64,000 nucleotides of DNA from Dehalococcoidia bacterium (lineage in GTDB: Bacteria; Chloroflexota; Dehalococcoidia; DSTF01; JACRBR01): the NCBI GenBank assembly GCA_035632115.1, contig DASQHL010000133.1:792-64791 (forward strand), read 5' to 3'. Below, one piece after another: positions 10,925-40,171 of this stretch; position 1 is the first letter of the stretch, and each line of letters begins with the position of its first letter. The notes under the pieces are model-generated. The model did no database searches and was not told where the DNA came from. It was given only the letters and a program-made list of their open reading frames with translations. Position numbers and translations under genes: made by a program.

Positions 10925-11962
10925 TTAGCGCCGGCGCAGGCGCCGCCGCCGGTCGAAGCGGTCCGTCAGCACCACCTCCCGGTCACCTGCGTGCAGCGCG
11001 AACGTGAAGAACCAGCCGGCTAGCGCCAGCATGAGCGCGCCGCCGAAGAACGACCACTTCCACCACTGCGTCGTCGCGCCGTCGTTGCCGGCGGAAGGCA
11101 GCCCGCCGGCCTTGCCGCTCGCCGTCGGTTCGACACCGCCCGCAGGGGGCGCCGCGAGCGCCGGCGTCGGCTGGTTGGCATTGGAGATGACGGTGATGCG
11201 CGGCGTCGCCGTTGGTGCCGCCGTCGTGGTGGCGGCGGGCGTGCCCGTGGTCGTGGCCGCCGGTGTGCCCGTCGCCGTCGTCACGGGCGTGTTGGTGCTG
11301 GTGGCGGTTGCCTGCGGCGTCGCCGTAGACGGGGCCACCGGCGTGCTCGTTGGGGTCGCAGTGACCGTCGGCGAGAGCGTCGGCGTCGCCGTCGGCACGG
11401 CGCCGCCCACCACGACGATCGTCGGGTTGCCGAGCGCCGGCGTGCTGGGCGTCGCCGTGCCGTCCTTTACCTGCACCCAGCTCCACTGGATGTTGGCGTT
11501 CCCGTTGGCCAGCGCGATGAACTGGATCGTCGCGACCGTGCCACCCCCGCTCACCTCCAGGCCGCTGTTGAGCTGGTACTCGTAGTTGATCTGGCCCGCC
11601 GGGTTCACCGAGTTGGTCAGCACGGCGCCCTCGGTCTGGTAGTTGAGGTCGGTGCCCGGGAACCACCCTGGCAGGATCTGCGTGCCGGGGGTCGCGTTGT
11701 CGGAGTCGGTCACCGCCACGATCGACGGATCGTACGTAATGCGGAATGCGACGTCATTGACGCTGGTGGCGTTCGACGCGGAGACCACCACCAGCACGCT
11801 CTGGCCGACGTTGAGCGACTGGCTTGACGGGGTCATCGATAGCGTGGCGGACGGGTTGGCCTGGACGCTGGGCGTGCGGACCAGCAGCAGCGCGCACACG
11901 GCTGCGATAGCGACCGGGAGGCGCGCGAGCACGCGCGCGCGGAGACGGTGCCGTCCTTGCAT
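10925..11962 (-). CDS. Exported cohesin-domain protein with a Thr/Pro/Ala-rich linker and a C-terminal TM anchor
   Basis: Signal peptide MQGRHRLRARVLARLPVAIAAVCALLLVRTPSVQA from the internal ATG at 11962. Cohesin-like beta-sandwich region. About 90-aa TPTATPT… low-complexity linker. C-terminal hydrophobic helix followed by an RRRRLRRR tail. Confidence 0.7.
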   Translation of the reverse strand: MQGRHRLRARVLARLPVAIAAVCALLLVRTPSVQANPSATLSMTPSSQSLNVGQSVLVVVSASNATSVNDVAFRITYDPSIVAVTDSDNATPGTQILPGWFPGTDLNYQTEGAVLTNSVNPAGQINYEYQLNSGLEVSGGGTVATIQFIALANGNANIQWSWVQVKDGTATPSTPALGNPTIVVVGGAVPTATPTLSPTVTATPTSTPVAPSTATPQATATSTNTPVTTATGTPAATTTGTPAATTTAAPTATPRITVISNANQPTPALAAPPAGGVEPTASGKAGGLPSAGNDGATTQWWKWSFFGGALMLALAGWFFTFALHAGDREVVLTDRFDRRRRLRRR

Positions 11963-12139
11963 GCAGATCCTCGAGTCGGTATCGGAGCCGGCGCACGGAC
12001 GGCGCAAGGTGCTGCCACCCAGCGCGTCCCAGATACGGCGATCCGCGGCGCCGCGTCGGGGAACTCCGGGGTGAACATCAGGGAGACGCGTCGCGGAATG
12101 CCGCGTCCCGCGCGCCAGGCCGTCGTACCGTCGTACGTG

Positions 12140-12811
12140 CTACGCCTGCGGGGTCAGCTTCGCGACAAGATGCAGACGCCGGTCGAAGAGCAGGCTCGCC
12201 GGCCACGGGTACAGCCCCGCGTGCTCGCTCCACTGCCGCACGTCCAGGCCTGCCGCCGCAAACGCGGCGCGCCACTCGCCCGGCGAGAGGTAGTGGTACG
12301 GGAGCGCCACGCCGTGCTGGTGATTCCCGAACCAGTCCATGAAGCGCAGCGTGCGCTGCGCCAGCAACCCCTGCCGCAGGTGGTCCTTGATCACGATGCA
12401 ATCGCCCGCCACCCGCCGCGCCTCCCGGAGCAGCGGCAGCGGGTCGATCGTGTGGTGCAGCACGTCGACGAACAGCACGGTATCGAAGCTGGCGGCCGGA
12501 TGCGGGATCGTGCTCCCATCGAACTGCTCCACGGGGATGCGCGCGCCCGGCCGCACGAGCACCTCGACGCCGTGGATCGTGACGTCCGGACGCTCGCGGA
12601 GGATCATCGCGTCGAGCGTGCCATCGCCGCAGCCGACGTCCAGGATGCGCGCCCCCCGCGGCAGGAGCGGTCCGAGCTGCGCGGCGAGCCTGCGCACTCT
12701 GCGTCCGAAGACGAACCTCGCGTGGATGTCGCCGCCCCGCCTGTTCGCCGTCGCGCCGGGCGGCGTCGGCTGCCCCTGCGGCGGCGGCCGGCCGGGCTCC
12801 CCGGCGTTCAC
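12140..12811 (-). CDS. Class I SAM-dependent methyltransferase
   Basis: Motif I ILDVGCGDGTLD. GTG start overlaps the TGA stop of the upstream GT2 gene (GTGA). The remainder of ORF 12140..13675 is antisense to the GT2 gene. Confidence 0.7.
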   Translation of the reverse strand: MNAGEPGRPPPQGQPTPPGATANRRGGDIHARFVFGRRVRRLAAQLGPLLPRGARILDVGCGDGTLDAMILRERPDVTIHGVEVLVRPGARIPVEQFDGSTIPHPAASFDTVLFVDVLHHTIDPLPLLREARRVAGDCIVIKDHLRQGLLAQRTLRFMDWFGNHQHGVALPYHYLSPGEWRAAFAAAGLDVRQWSEHAGLYPWPASLLFDRRLHLVAKLTPQA

Positions 12812-13977
12812 TCCGTCTCCAGCAGGCTGGCGAGCGCGCCGACGAGGCCGATGTTGACGCCGACAATGATCAGCGCCTGCGCGATCGCGGCCAGGTCGAG
12901 CGTGCTGATACCGGAGATGGTGACAAAGGCGAGCACCAGGTCCAGCGCGGCGCCGGCGGCGATCAGCGCCAGCGCCAGCGCGATCAGCGCCTCCAATCCC
13001 AGGTAGCGGCGGTAGAAGCGCAGCACCGCGTCTTCGTTCGTGATGCCGCGCCGCGTCGTGAACAGCCGCGAGGCGAAGCCCAGCAGCAGCGCGTTCACGC
13101 CCACGACCAGGAAGATGCCGCCGGCGAAGATCGGCTGCCAGCGCGTGTCGCCGATCTGGATGCCGTTCGCCGGCAGCGCCAGAGCGAGCGTCAGCACGCC
13201 GACGACCGTCAGCAACGCGCCCGGGAGCGTGAACAGGTAGTTCGGGCTGGCGAGCAGCAGGAAGCGCAGGTGGCGCCACCCGTCTCGGAACGTGTTGAGC
13301 TTCGCCTCGCCGAGCCGTTCGCCGTACGGCACCGGCACCTCGGCGACCTTCAGGCCCCGGCGTGCCGCCTTGAGGATCATCTCGGACGCCAGCTCCATGC
13401 CGTCCGTGCGCAGCTCCAGCCGGTCGAGCGCGCCCCGCGTGAAGGCGCGGAGGCCGCACTGGCTGTCGCCGGCACGGAGGCCCGTGAACAGCTTCAGCAG
13501 GAACGAGATCGCCGGCGTGCCAATGTAGCGGTGGCTCCACGTCATGGCCCCGGGCGCGATGCCCCCGGCGAACCGGTTGCCCACCGACATGTCGTACCCC
13601 TCGGCCAGCGGTTGGATCAGGCCGCCGAGGTCGCTGAAATCGTACGTGTCGTCGCAGTCTCCCATGACCAGCCATTCGCCGCGCGCCTCGGCGAAGCCGC
13701 GGCGCAACGCCGCCCCGTAGCCGCGCGCGGACTCGCGCACCACCCGCGCCCCGGCGGTGGCGGCTATCTCGGCGGAGGCGTCCTCCGACCCGTTATCGAC
13801 GACGATCACCTCGCCCGGCGTTCGGGTGCGCTTCAGCCAGTCCTGCGCCTTCCGCACGCAGACGCCGACCGTCTGCTCCTCGTTCAGGCACGGCATGACG
13901 ATGGAGACGAACGCCTGCGCGTTCACCGCGGCGGCGCGCGCCTCGTACGCCGGTTGACCGGGACTGTTGCTCGCCAC
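12808..13977 (-). CDS. GT2-family polyprenyl-phosphate sugar synthase-like glycosyltransferase (DPM1/GtrB/Ppm1-like), catalytic domain plus C-terminal TM helices
   Basis: N-terminal …SIVMPCLNEEQTV…VIVVDNGSEDASAEIA… (GT-A DxD region). Four C-terminal hydrophobic helices. GTG start at 13977 follows GAAAGGG. The upstream part of ORF 12808..15291 is non-coding or antisense. Confidence 0.75.
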   Translation of the reverse strand: MASNSPGQPAYEARAAAVNAQAFVSIVMPCLNEEQTVGVCVRKAQDWLKRTRTPGEVIVVDNGSEDASAEIAATAGARVVRESARGYGAALRRGFAEARGEWLVMGDCDDTYDFSDLGGLIQPLAEGYDMSVGNRFAGGIAPGAMTWSHRYIGTPAISFLLKLFTGLRAGDSQCGLRAFTRGALDRLELRTDGMELASEMILKAARRGLKVAEVPVPYGERLGEAKLNTFRDGWRHLRFLLLASPNYLFTLPGALLTVVGVLTLALALPANGIQIGDTRWQPIFAGGIFLVVGVNALLLGFASRLFTTRRGITNEDAVLRFYRRYLGLEALIALALALIAAGAALDLVLAFVTISGISTLDLAAIAQALIIVGVNIGLVGALASLLETE

Positions 13978-14211
13978 GCCGCACCCTTTCGAGGCAGGAC
14001 ACGTCCAACCGTGCTGTCGCGTGACGCTGCCCCACGCGGTCCGGCCTCGCGGTCTACCATACTGCCCGTGGGCGCCGGCGGCCAAGCGATCGGGCCACCA
14101 CGCGGCCGAATGGCCGCGTTCCCGCTGCTGGGAGCACGCGGGGCGCCATTGTGGGGAGCGATCCGCGGCAGATACGCTGCCGGGCAGCATGCCGATGCAC
14201 GTGACCCGGGG

Positions 14212-17025
14212 ATGCCTGTACCAGCGGTGCTGCCCGTGAGCGCGCCACGTCGGTGGGCGCAACGTCTCCGCCGGACGTGGCCCCGGACGCCAGCCTCCAT
14301 CGCCATCACCATCGCCCTGGGCGTCAACCTGCTGGTGGCCGGCGCATACCTCTGGAGTCGCGGCGGCGAGACGATTCATCTGCGGATGGTCGCGCAGGAT
14401 GACCACTTCACGGTGTTCGTCAACGGGCGCGAGCAGGCGTCGGCGCGGCTCGAGGCGGCCGCCACGGGCGGCATCCGCCTGACGGTCGCCGACACGGGCG
14501 CGATCCCGAGCCTGCCGACGCCGCGCGGGATCGATAGCGTCCGCGTCACGGACCTCGCCACCAATGCTGTGCTCTTCCAGGACGACTTCTCCAGGTCGCC
14601 GCGGGACAACGCGGCGTGGCGCATCGTGGGGACGCCACTGGTGAACGGCGGTGCCGTCGGCGCAGGCCAGCAGGGCGTGACGCTGCAGTCCTTCGGCCAC
14701 CCGTGGCACAACTACGCCGTCGATGTCACGTATCGCAACATCGTGGCGGCGTCCGTCCGTGTGCGCGCGGCGGACGAGCAGAACGGCGTCGATTTCAGCT
14801 TCCGGCCATTCCGGCACCTGGACAACTCGCTCTCGCTCCTCGTCAACGGCAAGACCGTCACGTCGATCTCCGGTCCGACCCTGAAGCTCTCGCCGCAGAC
14901 GACGATCCGGTCGATGCTGTGGACGCTGCTGGACCCGTATCCAAAGGTCGCGCTGCTGCTGCTCGTGGGGTTGATCGCCGTGGCGGTGCTGCAGTTCGTG
15001 CCGGCGGAGACCGTGCGTGCGCTGCATGTGCCGCTGCCGCGGGCCGCACCGTGGCTCGCCGTCGGAGCGATGGCGGCGGTGGCGTTCGCCGTGACGTTGT
15101 TCCTGGGGTACGTGTACGGGAGCCACATGCCACACGTCCCGGATTCGGTGTCGTACGTGTTCCAGGCGAAGGTGCTGGCTGCGGGCCACCTCTCGGCGCC
15201 GGCGCCCCCCTCTCCGGCGTTCGACTTCTTCTTCCCTCCACTGATCGAGGTGCACCACGGGCGTTGGGCCAGCGTCTACCCGTTCGGCCACCCGCTGGTC
15301 CTCGCGGTCGGCGAGCTGTTCCGCGCCATCTGGCTGGTGCCACCGCTGATCGGCGCGGCGGGCGTGGCGCTGATGTTCGCGGTCGGGCGGCGCCTATACA
15401 ACGTGCGGACGGCGTTGCTGGCCGCCCTGCTGCTGGCCGGCTCGCCGTTCTTCATGATGTCGGCAAGCGACTACATGTCGCACAACACCGCCGCGTTCTA
15501 CGTGCTGCTGTCCGTGCTGTTCCTCGTGTTGCACGATCGGCGGCCGCTGTTGTTCCCGTTCCTCTCCGGTGTCTTCTTCGGGCTGCTCTTCAACACCCGC
15601 CCGCTGACGGCGGCGGGCCTCGTCGCGCCGTACGGCGTCATGCTGCTGAGCTTCCTGGTGCCCCGCAACGGGCGGAAACTCGCGCTGAAGCAGATCGTCG
15701 CATTCGCAGCCGGAGGGCTGCTGATGCTGCTGGCGTACTACCTGTACACGTGGGGCGCGACGGGTAGCCCGTTCACGATCTCCGCCACGCAGGCGAATAA
15801 GAACAACGTCGGGTTCGGCGGGACCCACACCCTGGCTGCCGGCGTCTCGAACGACCAGACGCAGCTGGCCATGCTGGCTCTTGTCCTCAACGACTGGCCC
15901 GTGTACCTCGGCCTGGTGGTGGTGCTCCTGCCGTTCATCCTGGGTACGCGCAACCGCTGGGACTGGTTCTTCCTCGCGTGCGCGGCCATGGCCATGGGCG
16001 TGTACACGCTCTACTACTCGCCGGGAATCATGCACGGGCCGCGGTACTGGTACGAGGCGACGCCGTTCCTGCTCCTCCTGACGGCGCGTGGCGTCGACCG
16101 CGCGGCGCGGTTGCTGGCGGCCGGCGCGGCGCACCTGCGGACGCGGCTGCTGCGCACGGAGGCCGCGCCGGCCGAGTGGGCCGGCGTGTCCGTCACGTAC
16201 GCGTTCGTCGTCGTGCTGATAGCGGCGGGCGCCTACGGGTGGCTGCGCGGCGACGGCAAGCCCTGGCGCATCGACCTCATGCCGGCGCATGCGCGCGACC
16301 TGCGTGGATTCAACGGCGCCAACGACGCCTTCACCCGGACGGTCGCCGCTGCCCACCTGCACAACGCCCTCGTGCTGATGCAGCCGTGCCCGAACTGGCA
16401 GTGCTACGGCACCGTGTTCTGGACCATGTCGCCGTGGCTCACCGGGAACGTGGTCTACGCGCGGAACCTCGATGGTGGGCTCCAGCCCGTCTTTGACGCC
16501 TTCCCGGATCGCCGGGTCTACATCGGCGACTGGGCTGCGCGCACCCTCCTGCCCTACGGCGCCACGCCGGCCGCGGTCGGGCCCTCGCAAGGCCCGGCGA
16601 CCGCGCCGCGCGCGAAGGAGATCCCCACCGAGGCACCGCGCGCCACGCCCACCCCGGCGCCGACTCCGACCATCGATGTGGCGCTCGCGTCGCGGCGGGA
16701 TACCGCCCGCCGCAAGGATCTGGACGCCGTGGCAGCGGCGCTCGATCGGTACCGGTCGCAGCACGGCGCCTATCCGCAGGTCAACGGCGTGCAGACGCTC
16801 TGCGGCTACCCGTCCGATGTCGGCTGCGTGCTCAAGAAGGTGCTCGACCCGCTGCCGACCGACCCACGGAACAACCAGTCGTACTGGTACACGTCTGACG
16901 GCACGTCGTTCACGCTGTTTGCGGAGATGGAAGAGGCGCCCGGGCCGTCCCAGTGCCCCAACCCCGCGCCCGAGCACCTGGCCGGCGTGCCGAATCTGTA
17001 CTGCGTCCATCGTGGCTCCGGTTGA
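14212..17025 (+). CDS. PMT/ArnT-like (GT-C fold, PMT_2/GT39-GT83-like) membrane glycosyltransferase with an N-terminal beta-rich extracytoplasmic domain and a C-terminal T2SS GspG/pseudopilin-like domain
   Basis: Uses the frame of ORF 13270..17025, whose 5' part is antisense to the GT2 gene. Candidate starts are the ATGs at ~14110 and ~14212. There are at least 10 predicted TM helices. C-terminal motif LDAVAAALDRYRSQHGAYPQ…DPLPTDPRNNQSYWYTSDGTSFTLFAEME matches GspG-type pseudopilin globular domains. Confidence 0.75.
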   Translation: MPVPAVLPVSAPRRWAQRLRRTWPRTPASIAITIALGVNLLVAGAYLWSRGGETIHLRMVAQDDHFTVFVNGREQASARLEAAATGGIRLTVADTGAIPSLPTPRGIDSVRVTDLATNAVLFQDDFSRSPRDNAAWRIVGTPLVNGGAVGAGQQGVTLQSFGHPWHNYAVDVTYRNIVAASVRVRAADEQNGVDFSFRPFRHLDNSLSLLVNGKTVTSISGPTLKLSPQTTIRSMLWTLLDPYPKVALLLLVGLIAVAVLQFVPAETVRALHVPLPRAAPWLAVGAMAAVAFAVTLFLGYVYGSHMPHVPDSVSYVFQAKVLAAGHLSAPAPPSPAFDFFFPPLIEVHHGRWASVYPFGHPLVLAVGELFRAIWLVPPLIGAAGVALMFAVGRRLYNVRTALLAALLLAGSPFFMMSASDYMSHNTAAFYVLLSVLFLVLHDRRPLLFPFLSGVFFGLLFNTRPLTAAGLVAPYGVMLLSFLVPRNGRKLALKQIVAFAAGGLLMLLAYYLYTWGATGSPFTISATQANKNNVGFGGTHTLAAGVSNDQTQLAMLALVLNDWPVYLGLVVVLLPFILGTRNRWDWFFLACAAMAMGVYTLYYSPGIMHGPRYWYEATPFLLLLTARGVDRAARLLAAGAAHLRTRLLRTEAAPAEWAGVSVTYAFVVVLIAAGAYGWLRGDGKPWRIDLMPAHARDLRGFNGANDAFTRTVAAAHLHNALVLMQPCPNWQCYGTVFWTMSPWLTGNVVYARNLDGGLQPVFDAFPDRRVYIGDWAARTLLPYGATPAAVGPSQGPATAPRAKEIPTEAPRATPTPAPTPTIDVALASRRDTARRKDLDAVAAALDRYRSQHGAYPQVNGVQTLCGYPSDVGCVLKKVLDPLPTDPRNNQSYWYTSDGTSFTLFAEMEEAPGPSQCPNPAPEHLAGVPNLYCVHRGSG

Positions 17026-17165: not shown

Positions 17166-19157
17166 GTGATGATGCCTAGAAATCCCTTCGACATCCTTGG
17201 CATCTCGTTGGACGCCGAGCCAGAGGTCATCCTAGCCGCCTACAGGACGCTTGCGAAGAAGTACCATCCTGACCTTAACCCTAACGATTCGCCAAGTTAC
17301 CTCAACGAGCGCATGGCCGATCTGAACTGGGCGCGAGCAGAACTCGATCGCGATCTGCCCGGCTGGCGAGCGAGGAAGAGAGCCGAGACGCGCCAGTCGG
17401 GCGCTGGATACGCACAGCCACGCCAACCCCCCCCCCCACGTCACGCTCCAGCGCCGTCGGATGCGCCGCCCTCCAAAGCCCCGGGCCAGGCCCAAAGTAC
17501 CGGCGCAGGTACCGTTTCCGAAGCTCAAGCTACACGCGCGCCACGGCCGTCGTGGCTATCGAACGAACTGCTCATCGAGATCGCGTTCGTCGCCGCCGTG
17601 ACCGCGGCGGCGCTGCTGATGCGCCTGTGGGGTCTCTCCGGCCTGCCGCACGGGCTCCACGGCGACGAGGCGGCGACCGGCCTCGACGCGCGAAAGATCC
17701 TCGCCGGCACCGACCTCTTCCCCTACACGCCGAGCGCGCTCGGCCAGCCGTCCGGGCCGATGTACTGGGCGGCGCTCTGGATCAAGCTCCTCGGCTCGAC
17801 GATCTTCGCTGTCCGCCTGGCCATGGCACTGCTCGGCGTAGGCACGGTCGTCCTCGGCTACTACGCGTTTCGGCTGCTCTTCGGGCGGCCGGTGGCATGG
17901 GCGGGCGCCACCATGCTCGCCTTCTCATCGTGGCTCGTCTTCTACAACCGCACAGGCTTCACCGCATCGGCGATGCCGTTCACGGAGATGGCGGCGCTGC
18001 TGGCCGTGGCCGTGGCGCTGCGAAAGGGTTCGCCCGCGTGGTTCATCCTCGCCGGCGCAGTGGTGGGCGCCGGCATCTACGGCTACTTCTCGTTCCCGCT
18101 CTTCGCCGTGGCGCTCGCGGTGTGGCTCGTCCTCCACGCGCTCGTCGAGCGGCTGCGACCGTTCGGCCTCACTGAGCCGTTCTGGCTGCACGCGCGCAAC
18201 GGCGCGCTGATGGCGCTGACCGCGCTGCTGCTCATCCAGCCGATGTGGCCCTACTTCACCGGCAAGAACCAGGGCTACACGCACGACCGCCAGGTGTTCG
18301 CACTCTCGAAGACACAGGCATACCAGCAGGCGGACACCCTCGGGCGTGTGCGGCTCTACTGGGACAACGCCCGCCACGTGATCAACGTGCTGCGGGAAGG
18401 TGGCCACCCCGACGCCTCGGACGGCTCGGGCGAAGTGTCGGCGCTGGACCCGCTACTGGTCGTGCTCTCACTGGCCGGCGCGGCCCTGTGCGCCGTCCTT
18501 GCCGTGACGCGGAAGCGCGCCGCCTACCTGCTGCCGCTGATCGTCGTCCCGATCGTGCTCATCGGCCCCATCTGGAGCGCCGGCGGCGTGCACCGGCGCT
18601 CGCTGGGGATCCTGCCCTTTGTGATCATGCCGGCCGCCGTGCTGCTGGGCACTGCGTGGGAGTGGCTCCGCGACCACGGCCGGCCGGGGCTTGCGGCGGC
18701 CGCCCTCTGCGTGCCGCTGGCGCTGTTCGCCGCCACGAACATCGACCGCTACTTCCGCCAGACGCCGGACTCGCAGGTGATGCTGTTCACCTACGCGCCG
18801 GAGCTGACCGACGCGGCGCTGCTGATCGATGCGCAGCCCCGGGACGTGCACGTCTACTTCGCCTCCGGGCGCTGGTCGGCCGGGTACGAGACGGTGCAGT
18901 ACCTCGTGCCGAATCGCGCGCTCGGCGACGGCACGCTGGAGGACCGGTCGAAGGAGTTCAGCAAGATCACCGGGTACGGCGGCCTCGACCGGACGCACCC
19001 TGCCTTGATCGTGCTCATGAACAACTACATGCAGGACGCGGACAAGGTCGCCGCCGAGTACCCGGAAGCGAAGAAGCTCGTCGGCGCCACGGTGAACAGG
19101 CTGCCGGCCTTCATCGCATTCTCCATCCCGGCACGGCAGGCGACGGGCGCGCCATGA
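17166..19157 (+). CDS. DnaJ J-domain fused to a PMT/ArnT-like (PMT_2) GT-C membrane glycosyltransferase
   Basis: N-terminal J domain with HPD (FDILGISLDAEPEVILAAYRTLAKKYHPDLNPND). Pro-rich linker. Multi-TM GT-C domain with the ArnT/PMT-type motif LHGDEAATGLDARKI in the first periplasmic loop. Confidence 0.8.
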   Translation: MMMPRNPFDILGISLDAEPEVILAAYRTLAKKYHPDLNPNDSPSYLNERMADLNWARAELDRDLPGWRARKRAETRQSGAGYAQPRQPPPPRHAPAPSDAPPSKAPGQAQSTGAGTVSEAQATRAPRPSWLSNELLIEIAFVAAVTAAALLMRLWGLSGLPHGLHGDEAATGLDARKILAGTDLFPYTPSALGQPSGPMYWAALWIKLLGSTIFAVRLAMALLGVGTVVLGYYAFRLLFGRPVAWAGATMLAFSSWLVFYNRTGFTASAMPFTEMAALLAVAVALRKGSPAWFILAGAVVGAGIYGYFSFPLFAVALAVWLVLHALVERLRPFGLTEPFWLHARNGALMALTALLLIQPMWPYFTGKNQGYTHDRQVFALSKTQAYQQADTLGRVRLYWDNARHVINVLREGGHPDASDGSGEVSALDPLLVVLSLAGAALCAVLAVTRKRAAYLLPLIVVPIVLIGPIWSAGGVHRRSLGILPFVIMPAAVLLGTAWEWLRDHGRPGLAAAALCVPLALFAATNIDRYFRQTPDSQVMLFTYAPELTDAALLIDAQPRDVHVYFASGRWSAGYETVQYLVPNRALGDGTLEDRSKEFSKITGYGGLDRTHPALIVLMNNYMQDADKVAAEYPEAKKLVGATVNRLPAFIAFSIPARQATGAP

Positions 19158-22691: not shown

Positions 22692-24806
22692 ATGAGCGGC
22701 GTCGACCACCCGGACGGCCCGCGCACGTTCGCGACGTGGCTGCGCGATAGCGCGCCGGTACCCCCGGACGTCATCGAACGCCTCATCGGGCTGGACCTGG
22801 GCCGCCACCCGACGCTCAGCGAGCTGCGCGCCGCCCTGGGGCTGGACTTCGACGCCGAGGCGGCGGCCGCCGCCGCCCGCGACGCCTGGCCCGGCCGCGA
22901 CGTGCTCCCCTCCGATGACGACCTCTGTGCCGTCCTGGACGCGATGTACCGCGCCGTCCGCTCGACCCGCATGGTGCGCGCCCGCTGCACCGTCGCCGGG
23001 CCGGAGCTCTCGCGCGAGGGCGGCGCCATCACCCTGCGCGACGGCGATCACCTGGTGCTGCTCGCCTTTGCCGACAACGAGACCGATGGCAGCGTGGCGT
23101 TCTCCTCCGAAGCCCACGGCGAGGGCGTCGGCGGCCACGTGGAGCAGCGCCGCTCGGGCTCGGCGCTGCTGGACGCAGGTGAGATGCACGCCGGTTCGTA
23201 CCTTCTCCCCGTGCTCGTTGTGGCCGACGGCCGCCCCGCCACGATCGACCTGCCGATCGAGTGCCGCCCGTCCGGCATGCTGGCGGTGCGGATCCTGGAC
23301 GCCGCTGGCGGCGAGCCCGTGGCGGCGCGCGTCTACCTGCTCGATGCCGTCGGCGCGGCGTGGCCCGACGGCGCGACCGTGCGCATCGACCAGCACGGCA
23401 ACGCCTACTTTCACGCCGAGGGTTCATTCGAGGCGCGTGTCAGCGGCGAGGTGCGGGTCCGCGTCGCCCGCGGCGTGGAGTACGAGCCGTGGGAGGAGAC
23501 GCTCACCGTGCCCACCGACGGCCGCGCCGAGCGCACGGCGCGCCTCGCGCGCTGGTCGGACATGGCGGCCGACGGCTGGCACAGCGGCGACGTCCACGTG
23601 CACATGCACTACGGCGGCGAGTACCAGCTCGAGCCGGAGGACGTCGCGCTGGTGCAGCGCGCGGAGGACGTGCGCTTCCTGAACATGATGGTGGCCAACC
23701 AGGACAGCGGCTGGGTGCACGACACGACGCGCTTCAGCGGGACCGACCACGCGTTGAGCACCGCAACCCACGTGCTGCGCTGGGGCGAAGAGTATCGCAA
23801 CGACTTCTACGGCCACCTCTGCATGTTCGGCATCCGCGCCCTCGTGCCGCCGATCTACAGCGGCTTCCGCGCCAGTGCCCACCCGCACGACGTGCCGGCG
23901 AACGCCGTCGCGGCGCGCGCCGCCCGCGACGCCGCGGGCACCCTGAGCTACGCCCACCCCATGATGGCCGACGGCGCGCTCGACCGCGTGTTCGAGAGGA
24001 AGCGCGCGTATGAGGCCAAGGAGCTCCCCGTCGACGCAGCGCTCGGCCTCATCGACGCGGTCGACGTGATGTCCTACCCCGCGAGCCATATCGATACGGC
24101 ACGGCTCTGGTATCGCCTGCTCAACTGCGGGCTGCGCCTCGCGGCGACCGCCGGCAGCGACACCTTCATGAACTGCTGCGAGCACGGCGAGTTCAGCAAC
24201 CCGCCCGGCGGCGTGCGCGCGTTCGTCCGCATCGATGGCGCGTTCTCAAGCGAGGCCTGGTGCGCGGGCGTGCGCGCCGGCCGCACCTTCGTCACCAACG
24301 CGCCGATGCTCTCGCTCGAGGCGACCCACGCTGGCGCGATGTACGGGGTCGGCGACGAGATCGCCGCGCGACCGGGCGACGTGATCCGCATCGAAGCGGC
24401 GGCGGGCGCCCACGTGAATATGGAGCGTCTCGAACTGCTGGTGGACGGCGAGATGGTCGAGGCGGTCGTGTCGGACGGCGGGATGGATCGCGCGGCGTTG
24501 ACCTACGAACTGACCGCGCGCGAGAGCTGCTGGTTCGCGCTGCGGGCGCAGGGTCCGGCCGACCCGCGAGTGATGGACGACGCCGTCTTCGCGCACACCA
24601 GCCCCGTGTACGTGAACGTGGACGGGGCGCCGCGACGCCACGCGGCGGACGCGGCGTACTTCGCCGAGTGGATCGAGCGCCTGATCGCGATGACCGAACG
24701 CGAGGGCCGGTTCCCGGACGATGCGTCGCGCGACGCCGTCATCGCCGAGTTCCGCGCGGCACAGGCGTACTATCGCGGCTCGGATGGCGCGGCGGGCGAG
24801 CGCTGA
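22692..24806 (+). CDS. CehA/McbA-family (PHP-like) metal-dependent hydrolase with an additional N-terminal domain
   Basis: 704-aa ORF. Central region …[16 protein letters not shown]…, …SYAHP…, …[18 protein letters not shown]… matches CehA/McbA metallohydrolase motifs. Confidence 0.6.
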
Positions 24807-28910: not shown

Positions 28911-29921
28911 CTAGGGGTGTACCCCTACCCAGGCGACGACAGCGTCCTCGATCGTGCGTTGGGCCGCGGCGGCGTCGTCCAGCGTCTTGTGGCTGACGAG
29001 CGCCAGCCCGCCGCCGCCGTCGCTTGGCGCCACGGGGGCGCGCTCCGTGCTCGCGTCGACGTTCGTCACGTTCGGCCGGCCGATGCCCGAGCCGTGCCAC
29101 CCCTCGTTGAGCTGGTACACGTTGAGGATCGGCGTCCGCAGTGGCATCTCGGTGGCATTGCGGTCGTACAGCGCGGTTGTGCGGTCGATGATGACGCCGT
29201 ACATCCGCGCCCCGAAGCGCATGTCGAGCGCGGCCGTGACCGACGTGACCGTCACCGCCCCGTGGCTGTGGCCCAGCAGCACGGCGCGCAGGCACGGCAT
29301 CGCCTCCAGGCGGAGCGCCACCTCGTGCCCAAGCCACTGCTCCATGCGTGTCTGCGGCAGATCCGCGCCGAACAGCGCCGATGTGGCCAGCACCGTGTCC
29401 GTCGCCACGCCCGCCGCCCCCAGCCGCTGCTGCAGCGTGCGCACGATGTCCAGCAACCCCATGCTCTCGCCCCCCGACGGATCCAGCAGGTTGCTGCCGG
29501 CGCTCGCCGCGGAGACGATCAACACGGGCGGCACACGCGCGGCGCAACTGTACCCCGCGGCGTCAGACGGCGGGCCGGCGTAGAAGTCGCTGCGATGCGC
29601 CGGATCGATGCAAGCCTCGCCGGCGACCAGCGGGATGTCGAGCCCGGCCAGCGCGCTGCCGTCACCCGCATTCAGCCGGCCGTCATGGTCGCGGTCAAGG
29701 CAAGAGATCTGGATCGGCACGCCGCCGCGGGACGTCGCCAGCCCCTCGATCCACGTCGCCGGCAGTGGCGTCGCCGTCGGTTGCGCGGGCGACGGAGTGT
29801 GCGTCGGGAGGGGGATCGTGGCGGACTGGCTGCTGCCGGCGCCGTTCGCGAACACGAGGTACAGCACTGCCGCTGCCACCGTGGCCACGGCAAGCAGCAC
29901 CAGCGCGGACGCGAATCTCAT
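28911..29921 (-). CDS. Secreted alpha/beta-hydrolase (lipase/esterase-like) protein
   Basis: N-terminal signal/TM MRFASALVLLAVATVAAAVLYLV. Thr/Pro-rich spacer. GxSxG nucleophile elbow in LLGHSHGAVTV. Confidence 0.6.
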   Translation of the reverse strand: MRFASALVLLAVATVAAAVLYLVFANGAGSSQSATIPLPTHTPSPAQPTATPLPATWIEGLATSRGGVPIQISCLDRDHDGRLNAGDGSALAGLDIPLVAGEACIDPAHRSDFYAGPPSDAAGYSCAARVPPVLIVSAASAGSNLLDPSGGESMGLLDIVRTLQQRLGAAGVATDTVLATSALFGADLPQTRMEQWLGHEVALRLEAMPCLRAVLLGHSHGAVTVTSVTAALDMRFGARMYGVIIDRTTALYDRNATEMPLRTPILNVYQLNEGWHGSGIGRPNVTNVDASTERAPVAPSDGGGGLALVSHKTLDDAAAAQRTIEDAVVAWVGVHP

Positions 29922-30356: not shown

Positions 30357-31229
30357 TCATGAAGTCGCCGGAGGACGGAGCGCGCAGCGGTGCGGCGCGC
30401 GGCCGGCAAAGCTCACCACCTCCCGGTAACCCGCCCGCTCCGCGAGATCGGCGAGCGCGCCGAATCCCTCGCCGACGCGCTCCGGCGTGTGCGCGTCGGA
30501 GCCGAACGTGATCGGCAGGCCCAGCGCGTGCGCCCGCTCGAGCAGCGGCGCCGCCGGGTAGATCTCGTGCACCGGCTTGTTAAGGCCGTTGCTGTTCAGC
30601 TCCAGCGCCATCCTGTGCACCGCCGCGCCGGCGAGGATCTCGTCGTGCATCGGCGTCTCGTCCGGCGGCCGGTGGCCGAACACCTTGACCACGTCCGGGT
30701 GCGCCAGCACATCCGCCAGCCCCGACGCCGCCAGTTCGCGCACAAGCCCGCCGTAGTCGCGCCACACCGCCGCCACGTCGCGCTTGCGCCACTCCGCGTC
30801 GAACGCCGGTTCATCGAAACCCCACGAGCCGATGTAATGCACCGAGCCCAACACGATGTCCCAGTCGTACGGCGCCAGGAACGCCCGCAGCTGGTCCTCC
30901 CGGCCGCGCACCCAGTCCATCTCCAGCCCCAGCAACACCGGTACGCCCGCGCTCTTCGCCCCTTCGACGAGGCGCACGTAGTCGGCCACGCTGCCGGAGA
31001 CGTGATCGCGCCAGTAGCGCTCCGCCAGGCGCGCCAGGTGCGGGTCCGGGTCGTCGTCCCACCAGCCCCGCAGCAGCTCGTACGCCTCGCGAAAGCGGAA
31101 CAGGTGCTCCGTGATGCAGATCGCCTCCACGCGGCGCTCTCCGGCCACGCGCACGTACTCGTCGATGCGTGCGCGCGTCATCGGCGGCTGCTCGCCGTGC
31201 GGCTGCAGGTGCGTGTGAGAATCGATCAC
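30357..31229 (-). CDS. hisK: Histidinol-phosphatase, PHP family (HisK-type)
   Basis: N-terminal VIDSHTHLQPHGEQPP and other PHP metal-ligand motifs (…ITEHL…, …GSVHYI…, …FGSDAHTP…). GTG start overlaps the upstream stop (GTGA). The rest of ORF 30357..31514 is upstream extension. Confidence 0.8.
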   Translation of the reverse strand: MIDSHTHLQPHGEQPPMTRARIDEYVRVAGERRVEAICITEHLFRFREAYELLRGWWDDDPDPHLARLAERYWRDHVSGSVADYVRLVEGAKSAGVPVLLGLEMDWVRGREDQLRAFLAPYDWDIVLGSVHYIGSWGFDEPAFDAEWRKRDVAAVWRDYGGLVRELAASGLADVLAHPDVVKVFGHRPPDETPMHDEILAGAAVHRMALELNSNGLNKPVHEIYPAAPLLERAHALGLPITFGSDAHTPERVGEGFGALADLAERAGYREVVSFAGRAPHRCALRPPATS

Positions 31230-31690
31230 CCGCGCAGCCCCAATTCGTCGATGATCGGCTCCATGCCGCGCATCAGCGAGACGATACGACCCGCGGCCTC
31301 GTCCGCCAGCTCCGGCGTCAGCGCAGGCGCGTCCAGCGAGCGGTGCAGCCGCGTCCACGACGGCGTCCACTCCTCCAGCTCGTACTCCGTGCCGATGCGT
31401 GCCTGCACCTCGGGCGCGCGCGCCGCCAGCGCTGCCGCCGCCTCGTAGTTGCGCTCCCGCTCGCCCTCGAAGTGCAGCCCGACCTCCACGCGCGCGCTCT
31501 TGCGCTGTGCCCACACCTCGTAGTGGATCTCCGGAGAGCCGCGGTAGTACTGGAGGTAGCCGAACCGCTGGCGCGACGCGAAGCCGTCGAGCCCATCGCC
31601 CACCCGCGCGCCCACGCGTTCATACACCAGCGCCAGGAACTCGCGGACGGTGAGGGACGGCAGGCCGGGTCCGGTGCGCCGCTTCGCCAT
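31226..31690 (-). CDS. Hypothetical protein of 154 aa with no recognisable domain
   Basis: ATG at 31690 (MAKRRTGPGLPSLTVREFLALVYERV…). Translationally coupled to hisK. The upstream part of ORF 31226..32155 overlaps the divergent gene and is non-coding. Confidence 0.5.
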   Translation of the reverse strand: MAKRRTGPGLPSLTVREFLALVYERVGARVGDGLDGFASRQRFGYLQYYRGSPEIHYEVWAQRKSARVEVGLHFEGERERNYEAAAALAARAPEVQARIGTEYELEEWTPSWTRLHRSLDAPALTPELADEAAGRIVSLMRGMEPIIDELGLRG

Positions 31691-31780
31691 GGCGGCATGG
31701 TAGGCGACGCGCTCGCGCACGCCCAGCGCGGCCCCGCCGCGTCCGGTTGCGTCTGCTCCGGACGGCCGTATGCTGGGCTT

Positions 31781-32281
31781 ATGCGCATCGGCGTCGTCTC
31801 CGACACGCACGGCTACGTCGACCCGCGGCTGGCGGCGGCCTTCGCTGGCGTCGAGGCGATCCTCCACGCTGGCGACGTCGGCGGCATGGACGTGTTGGCT
31901 GCATTGCAGGCAATGGCGCCCCTGTACGCTGTCCGCGGCAACAACGACGAAAAGCTCGGCGGGCTGGGCCTGCCGCTGCGACGGGACGTCGCCCTCGACG
32001 GCATCCCGTTTCATATCGTCCATCGCTTCCCGGACGCGCGCCCGCCAGCGCACGCCGGCGTCGTCGTCTTCGGACACAGCCACCGCGCGCTGATCGAGCG
32101 TGGCCCTGGCGCCATGCGCGTCAATCCCGGCGCCGCCGGCCGCGTGGGCTTCCACCGCATCCAGACCGTGGCGCTGATCAGCACCGCCGCCGGCGCCGTC
32201 GCCGAAGCGCGCGTTGTCGAGCTGGGCGCGCGCCTGCCGCCTCCGCCCCGCCGCTCCGCATCGAAGGGCGGTGCGCGATGA
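31781..32281 (+). CDS. YfcE/MJ0936-type metallophosphoesterase (MPP superfamily phosphodiesterase)
   Basis: MRIGVVSDTHGY…ILHAGDVG…VRGNND…GHSH motifs. ATG at 31781 in the frame of ORF 31169..32281. Confidence 0.75.
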   Translation: MRIGVVSDTHGYVDPRLAAAFAGVEAILHAGDVGGMDVLAALQAMAPLYAVRGNNDEKLGGLGLPLRRDVALDGIPFHIVHRFPDARPPAHAGVVVFGHSHRALIERGPGAMRVNPGAAGRVGFHRIQTVALISTAAGAVAEARVVELGARLPPPPRRSASKGGAR

Positions 32282-33741
32282 CCGATGCGCTGCTCGATGA
32301 GCTGGACCGGGAGGCTGAGGCGTTCGCCGAGGCGGTCGAGCGCGAACAGTACCTGAACGGATCCGGCCAGAAAGACCGCGTGGAGCTGCAGGCGATCTAC
32401 CGCCGTCACGCGCGACTGTTCTCGCGCGAGACGATCGATGCGCTGGCTCGCGCCGACGCCGCCGACGAGCGCCGGCGCGAGCTGCGTCGCCTGGCCGTCG
32501 AGGGTTACCTGGACGCCGCCGCGGACGAGCTCACCGAGGCGATCGCGCTGCGCGAGACGGCCGATGCGGTCGAATGGGACGGCGCCGCCGTGCCCTACCG
32601 GTCCGTTGCGCCGCTGGTGCGCAACGAGCCCGATGCCGCGCGCCGTCATGCGCTGGAACGCCGCCTCGCCGCGGTGACGGCGGCCCAGAACGCGCTCCGC
32701 GAGCGCCGCTGGGACGTCCTCCACGGGCGCGCGAACGAGCTGGGCTACGGAAGCTACCGGCAGCTCATCGAGGACGTGGGCGGGTTGGACATCGCTGCGC
32801 TCGCTGCGACGCTCGGCCGCTTCCTGCGCGACACGGAGGCGCCGTATCGCGACGCGCTGGCGACGCGCCTCCGCGCTATAGGCATCGACCCCGCGTTTGC
32901 CGAAAAGAGCGACCTGGCGTTTCTCTTCCGCGAGCCGGCGTTCGATCGCTGGTTCGCGGCGGACCGGCTGCTGGAGACCTACGCGGAGACGATGCGCGGA
33001 CTGGGGCTGGCGGACCAGGCGCAGGCGCGCATCATCCTCGATGTGGAGCCGCGGCCCACGAAGTCGCCCCGCGCGTTCTGCTCGGCGCTCCGCATTCCCG
33101 ACGAGATCTACCTTGTGATCAGCCCGCAGGGCGGCGAGAGCGACTACGGCGCCATCCTGCACGAGGGCGGCCACGCCCAGCACTTCGCGCACGTCGGTCG
33201 CTCGCTGCCCTTCGCCCTCCGCGGCCTCGGCGATAACTCCGTGACGGAGGGCTTCGCCTTCGTGCTCGAACACATCATGGCGATCCCCGCCTGGCTCGAG
33301 CGTCATCTCGGCATGCAGGATCCCGGCGCCTACCTGGCGGCGCACCGCTTCAACCGGCTCTACATGGTGCGCCGGTACGCCGCCAAGCTGCTGTACGAAG
33401 CGGAGCTGCACGCTCGCGACGAGGTGCGCGGCGGCCAGAAGCGCTACGCCGATCTCCTGACGGCGGCGACCGGCGTGCGCTACCAGCCGGAGGACTACCT
33501 CGCCGATGTGGACGACGCGTACTACTGCGCGCGCTATCTCCGCGCCTGGATCTTCGATGCGCAGGTGCGCGCGCTGCTGCGCCAGCGCTTTGGCGATGGC
33601 TGGTTCGCGTCGCCGGCCGCGGGTGCGAAACTCGTCGAGCTCTGGTCGCGCGGCCAGCGCTACGACGCGCCCGAGCTGCTGCGGCGCGAAGGGCTCGCCG
33701 GCCTCGACCCGGCCGCGCTCGTGTCGGACCTCGCCGGCTGA
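32278..33741 (+). CDS. HExxH zinc metallopeptidase (M3/oligoendopeptidase-like family)
   Basis: ATG overlaps the upstream stop (ATGA). Zincin motif ILHEGGHAQHF with a downstream E (…TEGFAFVLEH…). 487 aa. Confidence 0.6.
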   Translation: MTDALLDELDREAEAFAEAVEREQYLNGSGQKDRVELQAIYRRHARLFSRETIDALARADAADERRRELRRLAVEGYLDAAADELTEAIALRETADAVEWDGAAVPYRSVAPLVRNEPDAARRHALERRLAAVTAAQNALRERRWDVLHGRANELGYGSYRQLIEDVGGLDIAALAATLGRFLRDTEAPYRDALATRLRAIGIDPAFAEKSDLAFLFREPAFDRWFAADRLLETYAETMRGLGLADQAQARIILDVEPRPTKSPRAFCSALRIPDEIYLVISPQGGESDYGAILHEGGHAQHFAHVGRSLPFALRGLGDNSVTEGFAFVLEHIMAIPAWLERHLGMQDPGAYLAAHRFNRLYMVRRYAAKLLYEAELHARDEVRGGQKRYADLLTAATGVRYQPEDYLADVDDAYYCARYLRAWIFDAQVRALLRQRFGDGWFASPAAGAKLVELWSRGQRYDAPELLRREGLAGLDPAALVSDLAG

Positions 33742-35182: not shown

Positions 35183-35294
35183 CGGATGTTGCGGCGTCGC
35201 CGTCCGCAGCGAATGTTGCGGCGCGCCGGCGCTGACCTTTCCGCCGCCCCCCATGGTCGTCCGCTACAATCCCGCGGTGCCCGGAAGAGGTGTG

Positions 35295-36407
35295 ATGAAG
35301 CGGACCCGGTGGCGCGTCGCGCCGATCGCCGTCGCCTGCGTGACAGCGCTCGCGCTCGCTGCGTGCGGCGGCGGCGCAAAGAAGGCGGGTGGGCCGGCCC
35401 AGGGGCCGCCACGCTCCTTCATGATGGGGATCAGTACGTTGCCGCGCGCGCTCAACGCCCGGTCGTACGCCGACAGCTTCCGCCTCGCCGGCCAGACCGG
35501 CGACATGGTGCTGATCCAGCGCACCCCACCCTGGGCCGACTTCCTGCCCGGCGCCGATGTCAGCAACGCCACCGCCACCACCACCGCCAGCGAGAAGGCC
35601 GCGCTCAGCGATCGCCACCTGAAGCTCTTCTACGCCATCGACCCAACGGACGGCTCCACCGGGCGCGATCGCCTGGCCGGCCTGCCACCCGCGCTCGCCG
35701 GCCGCAACTTCGGCGATGCCCAGGTGCGCGCCGCCTTCCTCTCCTACGCCAAGTACGTCGCCCTGAACTACAAGCCCGCCTACCTCGCGCTCGGCGTCGA
35801 GATGAACCTCTACTACGAGCGCAACAAGGATGACCTGAAGAACTTCACGTCGTTGTACGACGAGGCCTACGACCAGGTGAAGCAGATCTCGCCGGCGACG
35901 CAGATCACCGTGACGTTCCAGTACGAAGACCTCCAGGGCATCCTGCCCACGCAGAACGCACACTTCGCCGACTGGCAGCTGCTCAAGCAGTTCGAGCCCA
36001 AGATGGACGTGACCGCGATCAGCACCTACCCCAGCTTCTCGTTTACCAGTGAGGCGGCCATCCCTGCCAATTACTACAGCCAGCTCCGCGCCTTCACCGA
36101 CCGCCCGATCGTCATCGCCGAGATGGGCTACTCCTCCGCTCCCGGCGCGCAGGGGATGAACAACGGCACGGACGCCGACCAGGCGAGCTTCGTGCGGCGC
36201 GTGCTGACGGAAGCGCAGGACCTCCACATGCCGTTCATCATCTGGTTCGCCGGCTGGGACCCCGCCTACGCCCAGGACACGCCGTACAGCGTCTTCCAGC
36301 ACATCGGCCTCCGCCGCGCCGACGACACCGCCAAACCCGCCTGGCAGCTCTGGAGCGACGCGGCGCGCCGCCCCTACCAGCCGCCCGCCCGCGCCGCGTC
36401 CGGATAG
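35295..36407 (+). CDS. Lipoprotein, putative TIM-barrel glycoside hydrolase (GH5/GH26/GH113-like)
   Basis: RBS GGAAGAGG then ATG at 35295. Lipobox LALAACGG. Candidate catalytic Glu pair (…LGVEMNLYYE… and …IVIAEMGYSS…). Confidence 0.55.
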   Translation: MKRTRWRVAPIAVACVTALALAACGGGAKKAGGPAQGPPRSFMMGISTLPRALNARSYADSFRLAGQTGDMVLIQRTPPWADFLPGADVSNATATTTASEKAALSDRHLKLFYAIDPTDGSTGRDRLAGLPPALAGRNFGDAQVRAAFLSYAKYVALNYKPAYLALGVEMNLYYERNKDDLKNFTSLYDEAYDQVKQISPATQITVTFQYEDLQGILPTQNAHFADWQLLKQFEPKMDVTAISTYPSFSFTSEAAIPANYYSQLRAFTDRPIVIAEMGYSSAPGAQGMNNGTDADQASFVRRVLTEAQDLHMPFIIWFAGWDPAYAQDTPYSVFQHIGLRRADDTAKPAWQLWSDAARRPYQPPARAASG

Positions 36408-40160: not shown

Positions 40161-40171
40161 GGAGGATCGCC

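Follow-up and report, generated by a model that had tools for sequence, protein, structure and literature searches.

Type IV pilins are defined by an N-terminal helix through which they polymerise, and their globular head is regarded as cargo of the filament. Some loops are hypervariable in true pilins. In proteobacteria, the membrane enzymes TfpW, TfpO/PilO and PglL glycosylate pilins. In actinobacterial cellulases and xylanases, a catalytic domain is joined through a Pro/Thr-rich linker to a carbohydrate-binding module (CBM). Modular type IV pilins such as PilB and PilC of Streptococcus sanguinis combine a pilin module with an extra C-terminal module, and in all of them the pilin module (IPR012902 / class III signal peptide) stays at the N-terminus (PMC8179133). 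Among GT-C glycosyltransferases, EmbC and AftD carry CBMs, and the GT136 enzyme ORF12 of Citrobacter youngae binds its acceptor through a C-terminal CBM that its activity does not require (PMC11127046). Three-component glycosylation (GtrA/B/C logic) uses a polyprenyl-phosphate-sugar synthase, a flippase and a GT-C enzyme (PMC11127046). Here we describe a gene that joins a GT-C glycosyltransferase, in frame, to a pilin-type head without the polymerisation helix. It lies at positions 14212-17025, on the plus strand, of a 64,000-nucleotide stretch from a Dehalococcoidia bacterium (contig DASQHL010000133.1, positions 792 to 64,791), hereafter the window.

The window has about 70% G+C, so that long spurious open reading frames (ORFs) are common. 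The frame of the fusion gene is uninterrupted from 13270 to 17025. Third-position GC content (GC3) and an identical NCBI protein indicate that the true start is most likely the ATG at 14212 or the GTG at 14236. The NCBI protein (P0001, 929 amino acids, 'MAG TPA: glycosyltransferase family 39 protein [Dehalococcoidia bacterium]') is 100% identical to the fusion protein. We divided the gene as follows (TM, transmembrane).

14212-17025, plus strand: whole gene, a multidomain GT-C glycosyltransferase of 937 amino acids; continuous ORF, GC3 0.91 (929 amino acids from the alternative GTG at 14236)
14212-14352, plus strand: Arg-rich, predicted cytoplasmic N-terminus and signal-anchor segment TM1 (residues 29-47), from hydropathy and charge count
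14353-14949, plus strand: predicted extracytoplasmic ConA-like lectin/glucanase jelly-roll domain, residues 48-246
14950-16236, plus strand: GT-C transmembrane core of PMT_2 type, residues 247-675, from Pfam, NCBIfam and hydropathy
15133-15156, plus strand: motif H308-V-P-D311-S-V-S-Y315 of the predicted first outside loop, with the family-invariant Asp, from the alignment of homologues
16237-16557, plus strand: predicted C-terminal extracytoplasmic domain of the GT-C enzyme, residues 676-782 (about 107 amino acids), with conserved C726 and C731
16558-16665, plus strand: Pro/Thr/Ala-rich, predicted flexible linker, residues 783-818 (about 36 residues); the letters through residue 826 are GATPAAVGPSQGPATAPRAKEIPTEAPRATPTPAPTPTIDVALA
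16666-17022, plus strand: pilin/pseudopilin-like head, residues 819-937, from Pfam, profile search, structure model and Foldseek

When the last 119-141 residues were scanned alone, they passed the gathering score of Pfam T2SSG (PF08334), which is 21, with 23.8-24.4 bits (E 3-5e-5). We aligned 44 homologous C-terminal domains, 26 of which matched T2SSG individually. The profile of this alignment was compared with 177,635 sequences of the PDB, and the top four matches were all EpsG/GspG (E 2.6e-4 to 2e-3). The NCBIfam equivalog model for GspG, TIGR01710, gave 22.4 bits against a cut-off of 88.85. Judged by these scores, the head is a homologue of the GspG head and not a GspG orthologue or equivalog, and the fusion protein falls outside the GspG family proper.

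A structure model of the head made by AlphaFold2 from the same alignment was confident (predicted local distance difference test, pLDDT, 93.6; predicted template modelling score, pTM, 0.87). It starts with a helix of 28 residues and also contains a short helix in a loop and three β-strands. In the model, the layout is that of a pilin head, with the amphipathic helix α1C packed on an antiparallel, three-stranded β-sheet and an αβ-loop between them. All of the 12 best Foldseek matches of the model were pilins or pseudopilins, with a probability of 0.98 for PulG.

Two features could be taken to mean that the similarity is spurious, or that a separate pilin gene was joined to the enzyme by a frameshift or misassembly: the T2SSG score is modest, 19.5 bits in the full-length protein, and the equivalog score lies far under its cut-off. 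We give this explanation almost no probability. It is effectively refuted by the significant profile and structural matches and by the single ORF conserved among homologues; neither a stop nor a frameshift was found between the transmembrane core and the C-terminal region.

The head family has 11 invariant positions, of which four are cysteines. C864 and C872 lie in the αβ-loop and C915 and C931 flank the last strand. They probably form two disulfides, C864-C872 stapling the αβ-loop and C915-C931 closing the C-terminal 'D-region'. The profile alignments to EpsG stop at position 81-86 of 119, and the remainder holds the invariant C915 and C931. This suggests that a C915-C931 disulfide takes the place of the Ca2+ site of GspG, which lies in the C-terminal β2-β3 loop, or of the D-region disulfide of pilins. 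The C-terminal segment would thus be closed by an invariant Cys pair, as in the D-region of type IVa pilins, where GspG has its Ca2+ site. The second invariant pair, in the αβ-loop, and the position of the head on the C-terminus of a polytopic enzyme also set it apart from GspG.

The head also differs from GspG, EpsG and PulG and from type IV pilins at its N-terminal side. It is preceded by the Pro/Thr/Ala-rich linker (PRAKEIPTEAPRATPTPAPTPTIDVALAS, then RRD). Neither a class III signal peptide (a short leader whose last residue is Gly/Ala, then F/M-x-x-x-E) nor a G|F-T-L-x-E motif with its peptidase site was found before the head. There is likewise no hydrophobic α1N of about 21 residues; the last hydrophobic segment (residues 656-674) is about 150 residues upstream of the head. 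The modelled helix starts at residue 824, directly after the linker and at the same point as α1C starts in canonical pilins; the polymerisation half of α1 is therefore missing, and the linker replaces it. Such a head would be neither cleaved by prepilin peptidase nor polymerised into a filament. The original prediction, made from the letters alone, had described a GspG-type pseudopilin globular domain, without prepilin leader or hydrophobic helix, fused to the C-terminus of a GT-C enzyme that begins with a β-rich extracytoplasmic domain. The pattern residues it quoted are present in the head, its proposed Pfam and structural comparisons gave the matches reported above, and each of its structural points was upheld.

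The head profile was searched against 1.84 billion cluster representatives. It retrieved 405 proteins with E of 1e-10 or below, and 7,297 when values up to 1e-3 were allowed. Counted at 50% identity, at least 405 sequence clusters (E up to 1e-10) thus contain orphan heads, on enzymes and on simple membrane stalks. We classed the 145 new proteins among the 150 best-scoring matches. None of these 145, stand-alone forms included, has a prepilin motif. Genes for filament machinery (the type IV pilus/type II secretion ATPase GspE/PilB, the platform protein GspF/PilC, prepilin peptidase and N_methyl pilins) were found neither among the 30 Pfam-scanned genes of the window nor in the Pfam lists of the neighbourhoods of homologues L001-L008. 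Judged by signal peptide, α1N and machinery context, the head lacks most of what defines a pilin, and it is no pseudopilin. Like the modular type IV pilins, the fusion protein has a pilin module and an unrelated module in one polypeptide, and a ConA-like lectin module is present in PilC and, by its model, in the fusion protein. The logic is inverted, however: here the pilin module is C-terminal, has neither motif nor polymerisation helix, and would itself be the displayed accessory.

These observations bear on whether the head serves for docking to a pilus. In that explanation, the GT-C enzyme would glycosylate type IV pilins or pilin-like surface proteins, its head would imitate the contacts between the heads of pilin subunits and in this way attract either the substrates or a pilus or secretion platform, and the stand-alone stalked heads described below would be substrates. 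The head and the heads of pilins are indeed truly homologous, GT-C-type enzymes are known to glycosylate pilins, and fused and split arrangements of head and GT-C enzyme are also expected of an enzyme-substrate pair. The lack of machinery in the scanned genes and of class III signal peptides in the best-scoring relatives speaks against it, as does the fact that filament subunits make contact chiefly via α1N, which is absent here. TfpW, TfpO/PilO and PglL resemble the fusion enzyme as polytopic, periplasm-acting transferases linked to pilin-fold proteins, but they act on separate canonical pilins and carry no pilin domain, and we saw no pilin substrate or pilus genes near the fusion gene. We regard docking as unlikely. 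The broader idea, that pilin heads freed of the filament-forming helix became a mobile recognition domain outside the membrane and that several PMT_2-type GT-C enzymes use such orphan heads, by head-to-head mimicry, to recognise stalked pilin-head proteins or true pilins as glycoprotein substrates or partners, would imply a glycosylation circuit previously unrecognised in Dehalococcoidia; this too seems to us improbable.

The head is conserved nearly as well as the enzyme. Mean pairwise identity was 0.47 both in the core and in the C-terminal periplasmic domain, 0.44 in the head, 0.41 in the lectin-like domain and only 0.27 in the linker. Because the value for the head is close to that of the core and far from that of the linker, we concluded that the head is under a selective constraint similar to that on the enzyme. 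A constrained head without the polymerisation helix means that the pilin fold can serve outside filaments.

Orthologues with the same fusion, whose search had been proposed together with the prediction, proved common. The head was present on 83 of the 120 closest homologues. The other 37 end soon after the periplasmic domain, usually with a Pro/Thr-rich tail. In a neighbour-joining tree of the cores, these head-less proteins form at least three separate clades and singletons, nested among head-bearing clades, which indicates repeated loss of a dispensable head module. We also scanned one genome per GTDB species with a full-length alignment as query (a single-domain query retrieved no relatives). 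Among the 79 loci obtained, a hidden Markov model of the 44-domain alignment found the head at the GT-C C-terminus in about 30. All of these belong to metagenome-assembled genomes labelled Dehalococcoidia, Chloroflexota or 'Chloroflexia', often with several paralogues each, save one 'Bathyarchaeia' contig. This contig (CAYGYP010000147.1, L024), 5.2 kb long and binned as 'Candidatus Bathyarchaeia archaeon', carries a full-length homologue of the fusion. Since the fusion is otherwise strictly from Chloroflexota, the label is most likely a binning error. Distant relatives of the core alone were found in Gemmatimonadota, Acidobacteriota, Gammaproteobacteria and the candidate phyla radiation, where both accessory domains are absent.

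The losses of the head could be explained if it were a mere cap. The enzyme would then O-glycosylate its own Thr/Pro linker, and possibly the head, and the head would be a disulfide-bonded end piece that extends the stalk or blocks C-terminal proteolysis. Measured as residues 783-826, the linker is 26-47 residues long in homologues (21% Pro, 16% Ala, 13% Thr), and its 44 residues here include 7 Thr and 10 Pro. Enzymes of PMT type attach O-linked mannose to Ser/Thr of Pro/Thr-rich linkers in proteins secreted by actinobacteria, and the clades that lost the head often kept the Pro/Thr-rich tail. For a mere cap, however, a mean identity of 44% and 11 invariant positions would be more than is needed, and its recurrence on several other protein families would be unexpected. 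We therefore consider this explanation quite unlikely.

Databases do not show the head at present. In precomputed annotations, all 120 homologues carry only PMT_2 (PF13231). This can be explained by the score of T2SSG, which falls just under the threshold in the context of the full-length protein. In a search of published full text for a pilin-like domain on a glycosyltransferase, we found no description. The statement in the original prediction that the architecture is undescribed thus agrees with both the literature and the annotations. The architecture is genuine and conserved but missing from annotations, and any function given to it is conjecture.

The relatives of the head fell into several groups: the fusion GT-C family itself (family A), a second PMT_2 family (P0141, P0158), further PMT_2 proteins (P0265), proteins with two to six tandem heads (including P0121, P0122 and P0224), and about 50 small proteins composed of an N-terminal signal-anchor helix, a Pro/Thr-rich stalk of 30-60 residues and one head. 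For example, P0121 (L090, 8001-10268) has 755 amino acids and six tandem heads, with a brief run of hydrophobic residues (…FFGTLFALD…) before each; it is encoded beside toxin-antitoxin pairs and genes for a phage portal and a terminase. The second PMT_2 family (family B) is represented in the window by the gene downstream of the fusion gene.

17166-19157, plus strand: second PMT_2 GT-C gene (family B), with no pilin head in the window; Pfam DnaJ at residues 7-54 and PMT_2 at residues 197-328

The family B protein starts with a predicted cytoplasmic J-domain (HPD motif, E 1.3e-8), followed by a low-complexity linker and the PMT_2 core. A J-domain on a GT-C glycosyltransferase is an unusual architecture in itself. 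No J-domain match is listed for the counterpart in L001 (552 amino acids), and the counterpart in L008 ends in a pilin head.

Within the window the head is present as a single copy. Elsewhere, relatives of family B (P0141, L008) end in the same head. In L008, which is syntenic with the gene pair of the window, both adjacent GT-C enzymes carry it. In L089, a stand-alone head with a TM anchor and a Pro/Thr-rich stalk (P0156) is encoded 14 bp upstream of a head-less family B gene. This pattern of fused and split forms suggests that the head is functionally tied to PMT_2 GT-C enzymes, for which it would be a new kind of accessory module.

The same arrangements could reflect oligomerisation. The heads of families A and B, or of a GT-C enzyme and a stand-alone head, would bind each other to form a hetero-oligomeric glycosylation complex, with a logic like that of Pmt1-Pmt2 heterodimers. 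This explanation could account for the adjacency of the two families, for the paired heads in L008, for the stand-alone gene directly before a family B gene in L089 and for the existence of tandem-head proteins. In the window, however, only the family A protein has a head, and most loci have no second copy within ±6-10 kb: except for the second GT-C gene in L008, neither a second head copy nor a split head gene was found near the head-less homologues of L006 and L007 or near the 79 genome loci. Pilin heads truncated at the N-terminus are, moreover, generally monomeric. Oligomerisation through the heads is therefore distinctly improbable.

We prefer to read the head as an exapted module that does not polymerise and that serves, on its tether, to recognise a conserved endogenous component of the envelope, with a probability of roughly 45%, and rank the docking, oligomerisation and cap explanations below it. 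Three points argue for this reading. An enzyme followed by a Pro/Thr linker and a small, disulfide-bonded terminal module has the architecture of CBM-bearing enzymes; modules that bind the acceptor are known from the GT-C enzymes EmbC, AftD and GT136 ORF12; and the hypervariable loops of true pilins are, in this family, conserved and, probably, stapled by disulfides. The original prediction had proposed a carbohydrate- or substrate-binding module, or docking onto a pilus or secretion apparatus; a binding module has indirect support also in the repeated loss of the head and in its fused and split association with GT-C enzymes, whereas the gene neighbourhoods covered here lend none to docking. 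The likeness to the actinobacterial cellulases and xylanases lies in the Pro/Thr-rich, probably O-glycosylated linker leading to such a terminal module; those enzymes are soluble hydrolases with recognised CBM folds, whereas here a membrane transferase bears a module of pilin fold. EmbA/B/C and AftD, which act in mycobacterial arabinan synthesis, and GT136 resemble the predicted fusion enzyme as polytopic GT-C enzymes that use a lipid-linked donor outside the membrane, with a gene set of synthase and GT-C, and with extracytoplasmic accessory domains. The C-terminal module of GT136 is dispensable, and that of the fusion family was lost in several clades. Their modules are β-sandwich CBMs packed on the core, in contrast to a pilin fold on a long flexible stalk.

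In the mechanism that we propose, the fusion enzyme would be a GT-C enzyme dependent on a polyprenyl-phosphate sugar and acting on the outer face of the cytoplasmic membrane, with the lipid-linked donor made by the product of a divergently transcribed GT2 gene next to it. Its core would bear two extracytoplasmic modules. The ConA-like jelly roll would be inserted after an extra N-terminal TM hairpin, and the GspG-type head would be displayed at the far end of the stalk of about 36 residues, which may be O-glycosylated. The head would tether the enzyme to an acceptor glycan or glycoconjugate, or to a partner in the wall or surface layer. A location of the head outside the membrane is suggested by the stand-alone forms, which are N-terminal signal-anchor proteins, by the invariant cysteines and by the positive-inside rule applied to the N-terminus.

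Several points weigh against the recognition module. The head has no known ligand, and the pilin fold is not an established CBM. With a lectin-like domain already at the N-terminus, a second glycan binder is unneeded, and the distance between the active site and a module at the end of a long stalk may be too great for the module to position an acceptor. Most of the conserved residues of the head are fold determinants common to GspG (LPxDP, YxYxS-G), so that conservation alone reveals no binding site. The membrane topology given here for the C-terminal part is itself an inference. In addition, L089 is the only case in which a split head was seen beside a GT-C gene, and two other genes for stand-alone or tandem heads (L088, L090) lie in unrelated neighbourhoods.

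The remaining parts of the protein fit a GT-C enzyme with outside domains. The N-terminus has six Lys/Arg and no Asp/Glu before TM1, from which residues 48-246 are expected, by the positive-inside rule, to lie outside the membrane. This region is present in all 120 homologues. Its model is all-β (pLDDT 91.5) and corresponds to a ConA-like lectin/glucanase jelly roll. The core matched Pfam PMT_2 at residues 366-508 (31.8 bits, cut-off 26.1) and the NCBIfam family LA_3751/LA_3752 putative glycosyltransferase (E 3.7e-10), and hydropathy shows about 10 hydrophobic segments. With a full-length profile of 36 sequences, the PDB yielded no GT-C match at E up to 1; the PMT_2-like core has no relative there that can be recognised by sequence.

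H308, D311 and Y315, in the motif H-V-P-D-x-x-x-Y, were invariant in 36 full-length homologues. From what is generally known of GT-C enzymes, D311 is a candidate catalytic base. The fusion protein has D-S instead of D-E at this site, which could be regarded as a sign of inactivation. We rejected this idea, as H[VIL]PD is followed by E, S, A, D or G in 97 of the 120 homologues. In the domain at residues 676-782, C726 and C731 (C-x4-C) are nearly invariant, and this domain is also kept in homologues without the pilin head.

Upstream of the fusion gene, two genes lie on the opposite strand.

12808-13940 (start approximate), minus strand: GT2 glycosyltransferase with four C-terminal hydrophobic helices, divergent from the fusion gene; Pfam Glycos_transf_2, E 5e-27
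12140-12811, minus strand: S-adenosylmethionine-dependent methyltransferase, a conserved member of the cluster; Pfam Methyltransf_23, E 6e-17

The GT2 protein is a candidate polyprenyl-phosphate-sugar synthase and thus a possible source of the lipid-linked donor. A GT2 gene beside the GT-C gene was seen again in L001, L004, L006 and L008, and the orthologous GT2 neighbours in L001, L006 and L008 also match GT2_TM_C. The methyltransferase has an equivalent position in L001, L004 and L008. A set of GT2, methyltransferase and LPG_synthase_TM genes, sometimes with GT4, stands beside homologues in L001, L003, L004 and L008. Compared with the three-component systems, the window has a synthase-like GT2 gene adjoining the GT-C gene, but the candidate flippase (LPG_synthase_TM), which occurs in those four neighbourhoods, was not found beside the cluster in the window. 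Downstream of the fusion gene are the family B gene and genes for an IscA/HesB protein, a GT4 and a GNAT/FemAB-like protein.

Other lineages have different neighbours. In L002 (7817-10004, the same locus as L014), a DprE1-like gene (FAD_binding_4+ALO), with an adh_short gene upstream, overlaps the start of the GT-C homologue by four bases and is translationally coupled to it. This suggests a donor of polyprenyl-phospho-pentose type in this lineage. In L007 (6837-14959), a head-less homologue is found with genes for inositol-1-phosphate synthase, two Lip_A_acyltrans proteins, a GT4 and a CDP-alcohol phosphatidyltransferase (CDP-OH_P_transf). The cluster resembles the actinobacterial genes for phosphatidylinositol mannosides, which hints that some members of the family may act on inositol glycolipids. 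Given these recurrent contexts, members of the family look like glycosyltransferases that take lipid-linked sugars, by the logic of the three-component systems, and add them to a glycan or glycolipid (or a glycoprotein) of the envelope. The conserved set of GT2 enzyme, methyltransferase, LPG_synthase_TM-like protein and two GT-C enzymes would then be a candidate envelope glycosylation pathway of uncultured Dehalococcoidia.

Beyond the methyltransferase gene, positions 10925-12007 (minus strand) encode a protein that starts with a signal peptide and ends in a TM anchor followed by an Arg-rich tail. Between them are a weakly matching cohesin-like domain (E 3e-4) and Thr/Pro/Ala-rich repeats that span about 110 residues. 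The protein is a plausible substrate for O-glycosylation. We dropped it as a conserved substrate gene because it is kept only in the closest relative, L001.

The window also contains peptidoglycan and rod-shape genes (SLT, alanine racemase, MreB and M23 peptidase). Five sizeable ORFs with coding-like GC3 had no Pfam match at E up to 1e-5: 22692-24806 (plus strand), 28911-29921 (minus), 31226-32155 (minus), 32278-33741 (plus) and 35292-36407 (plus). At 38616-41422 (plus strand), DUF1800 and DUF1501 genes (E 1.7e-104 and 1e-35) are adjacent and form a conserved pair.

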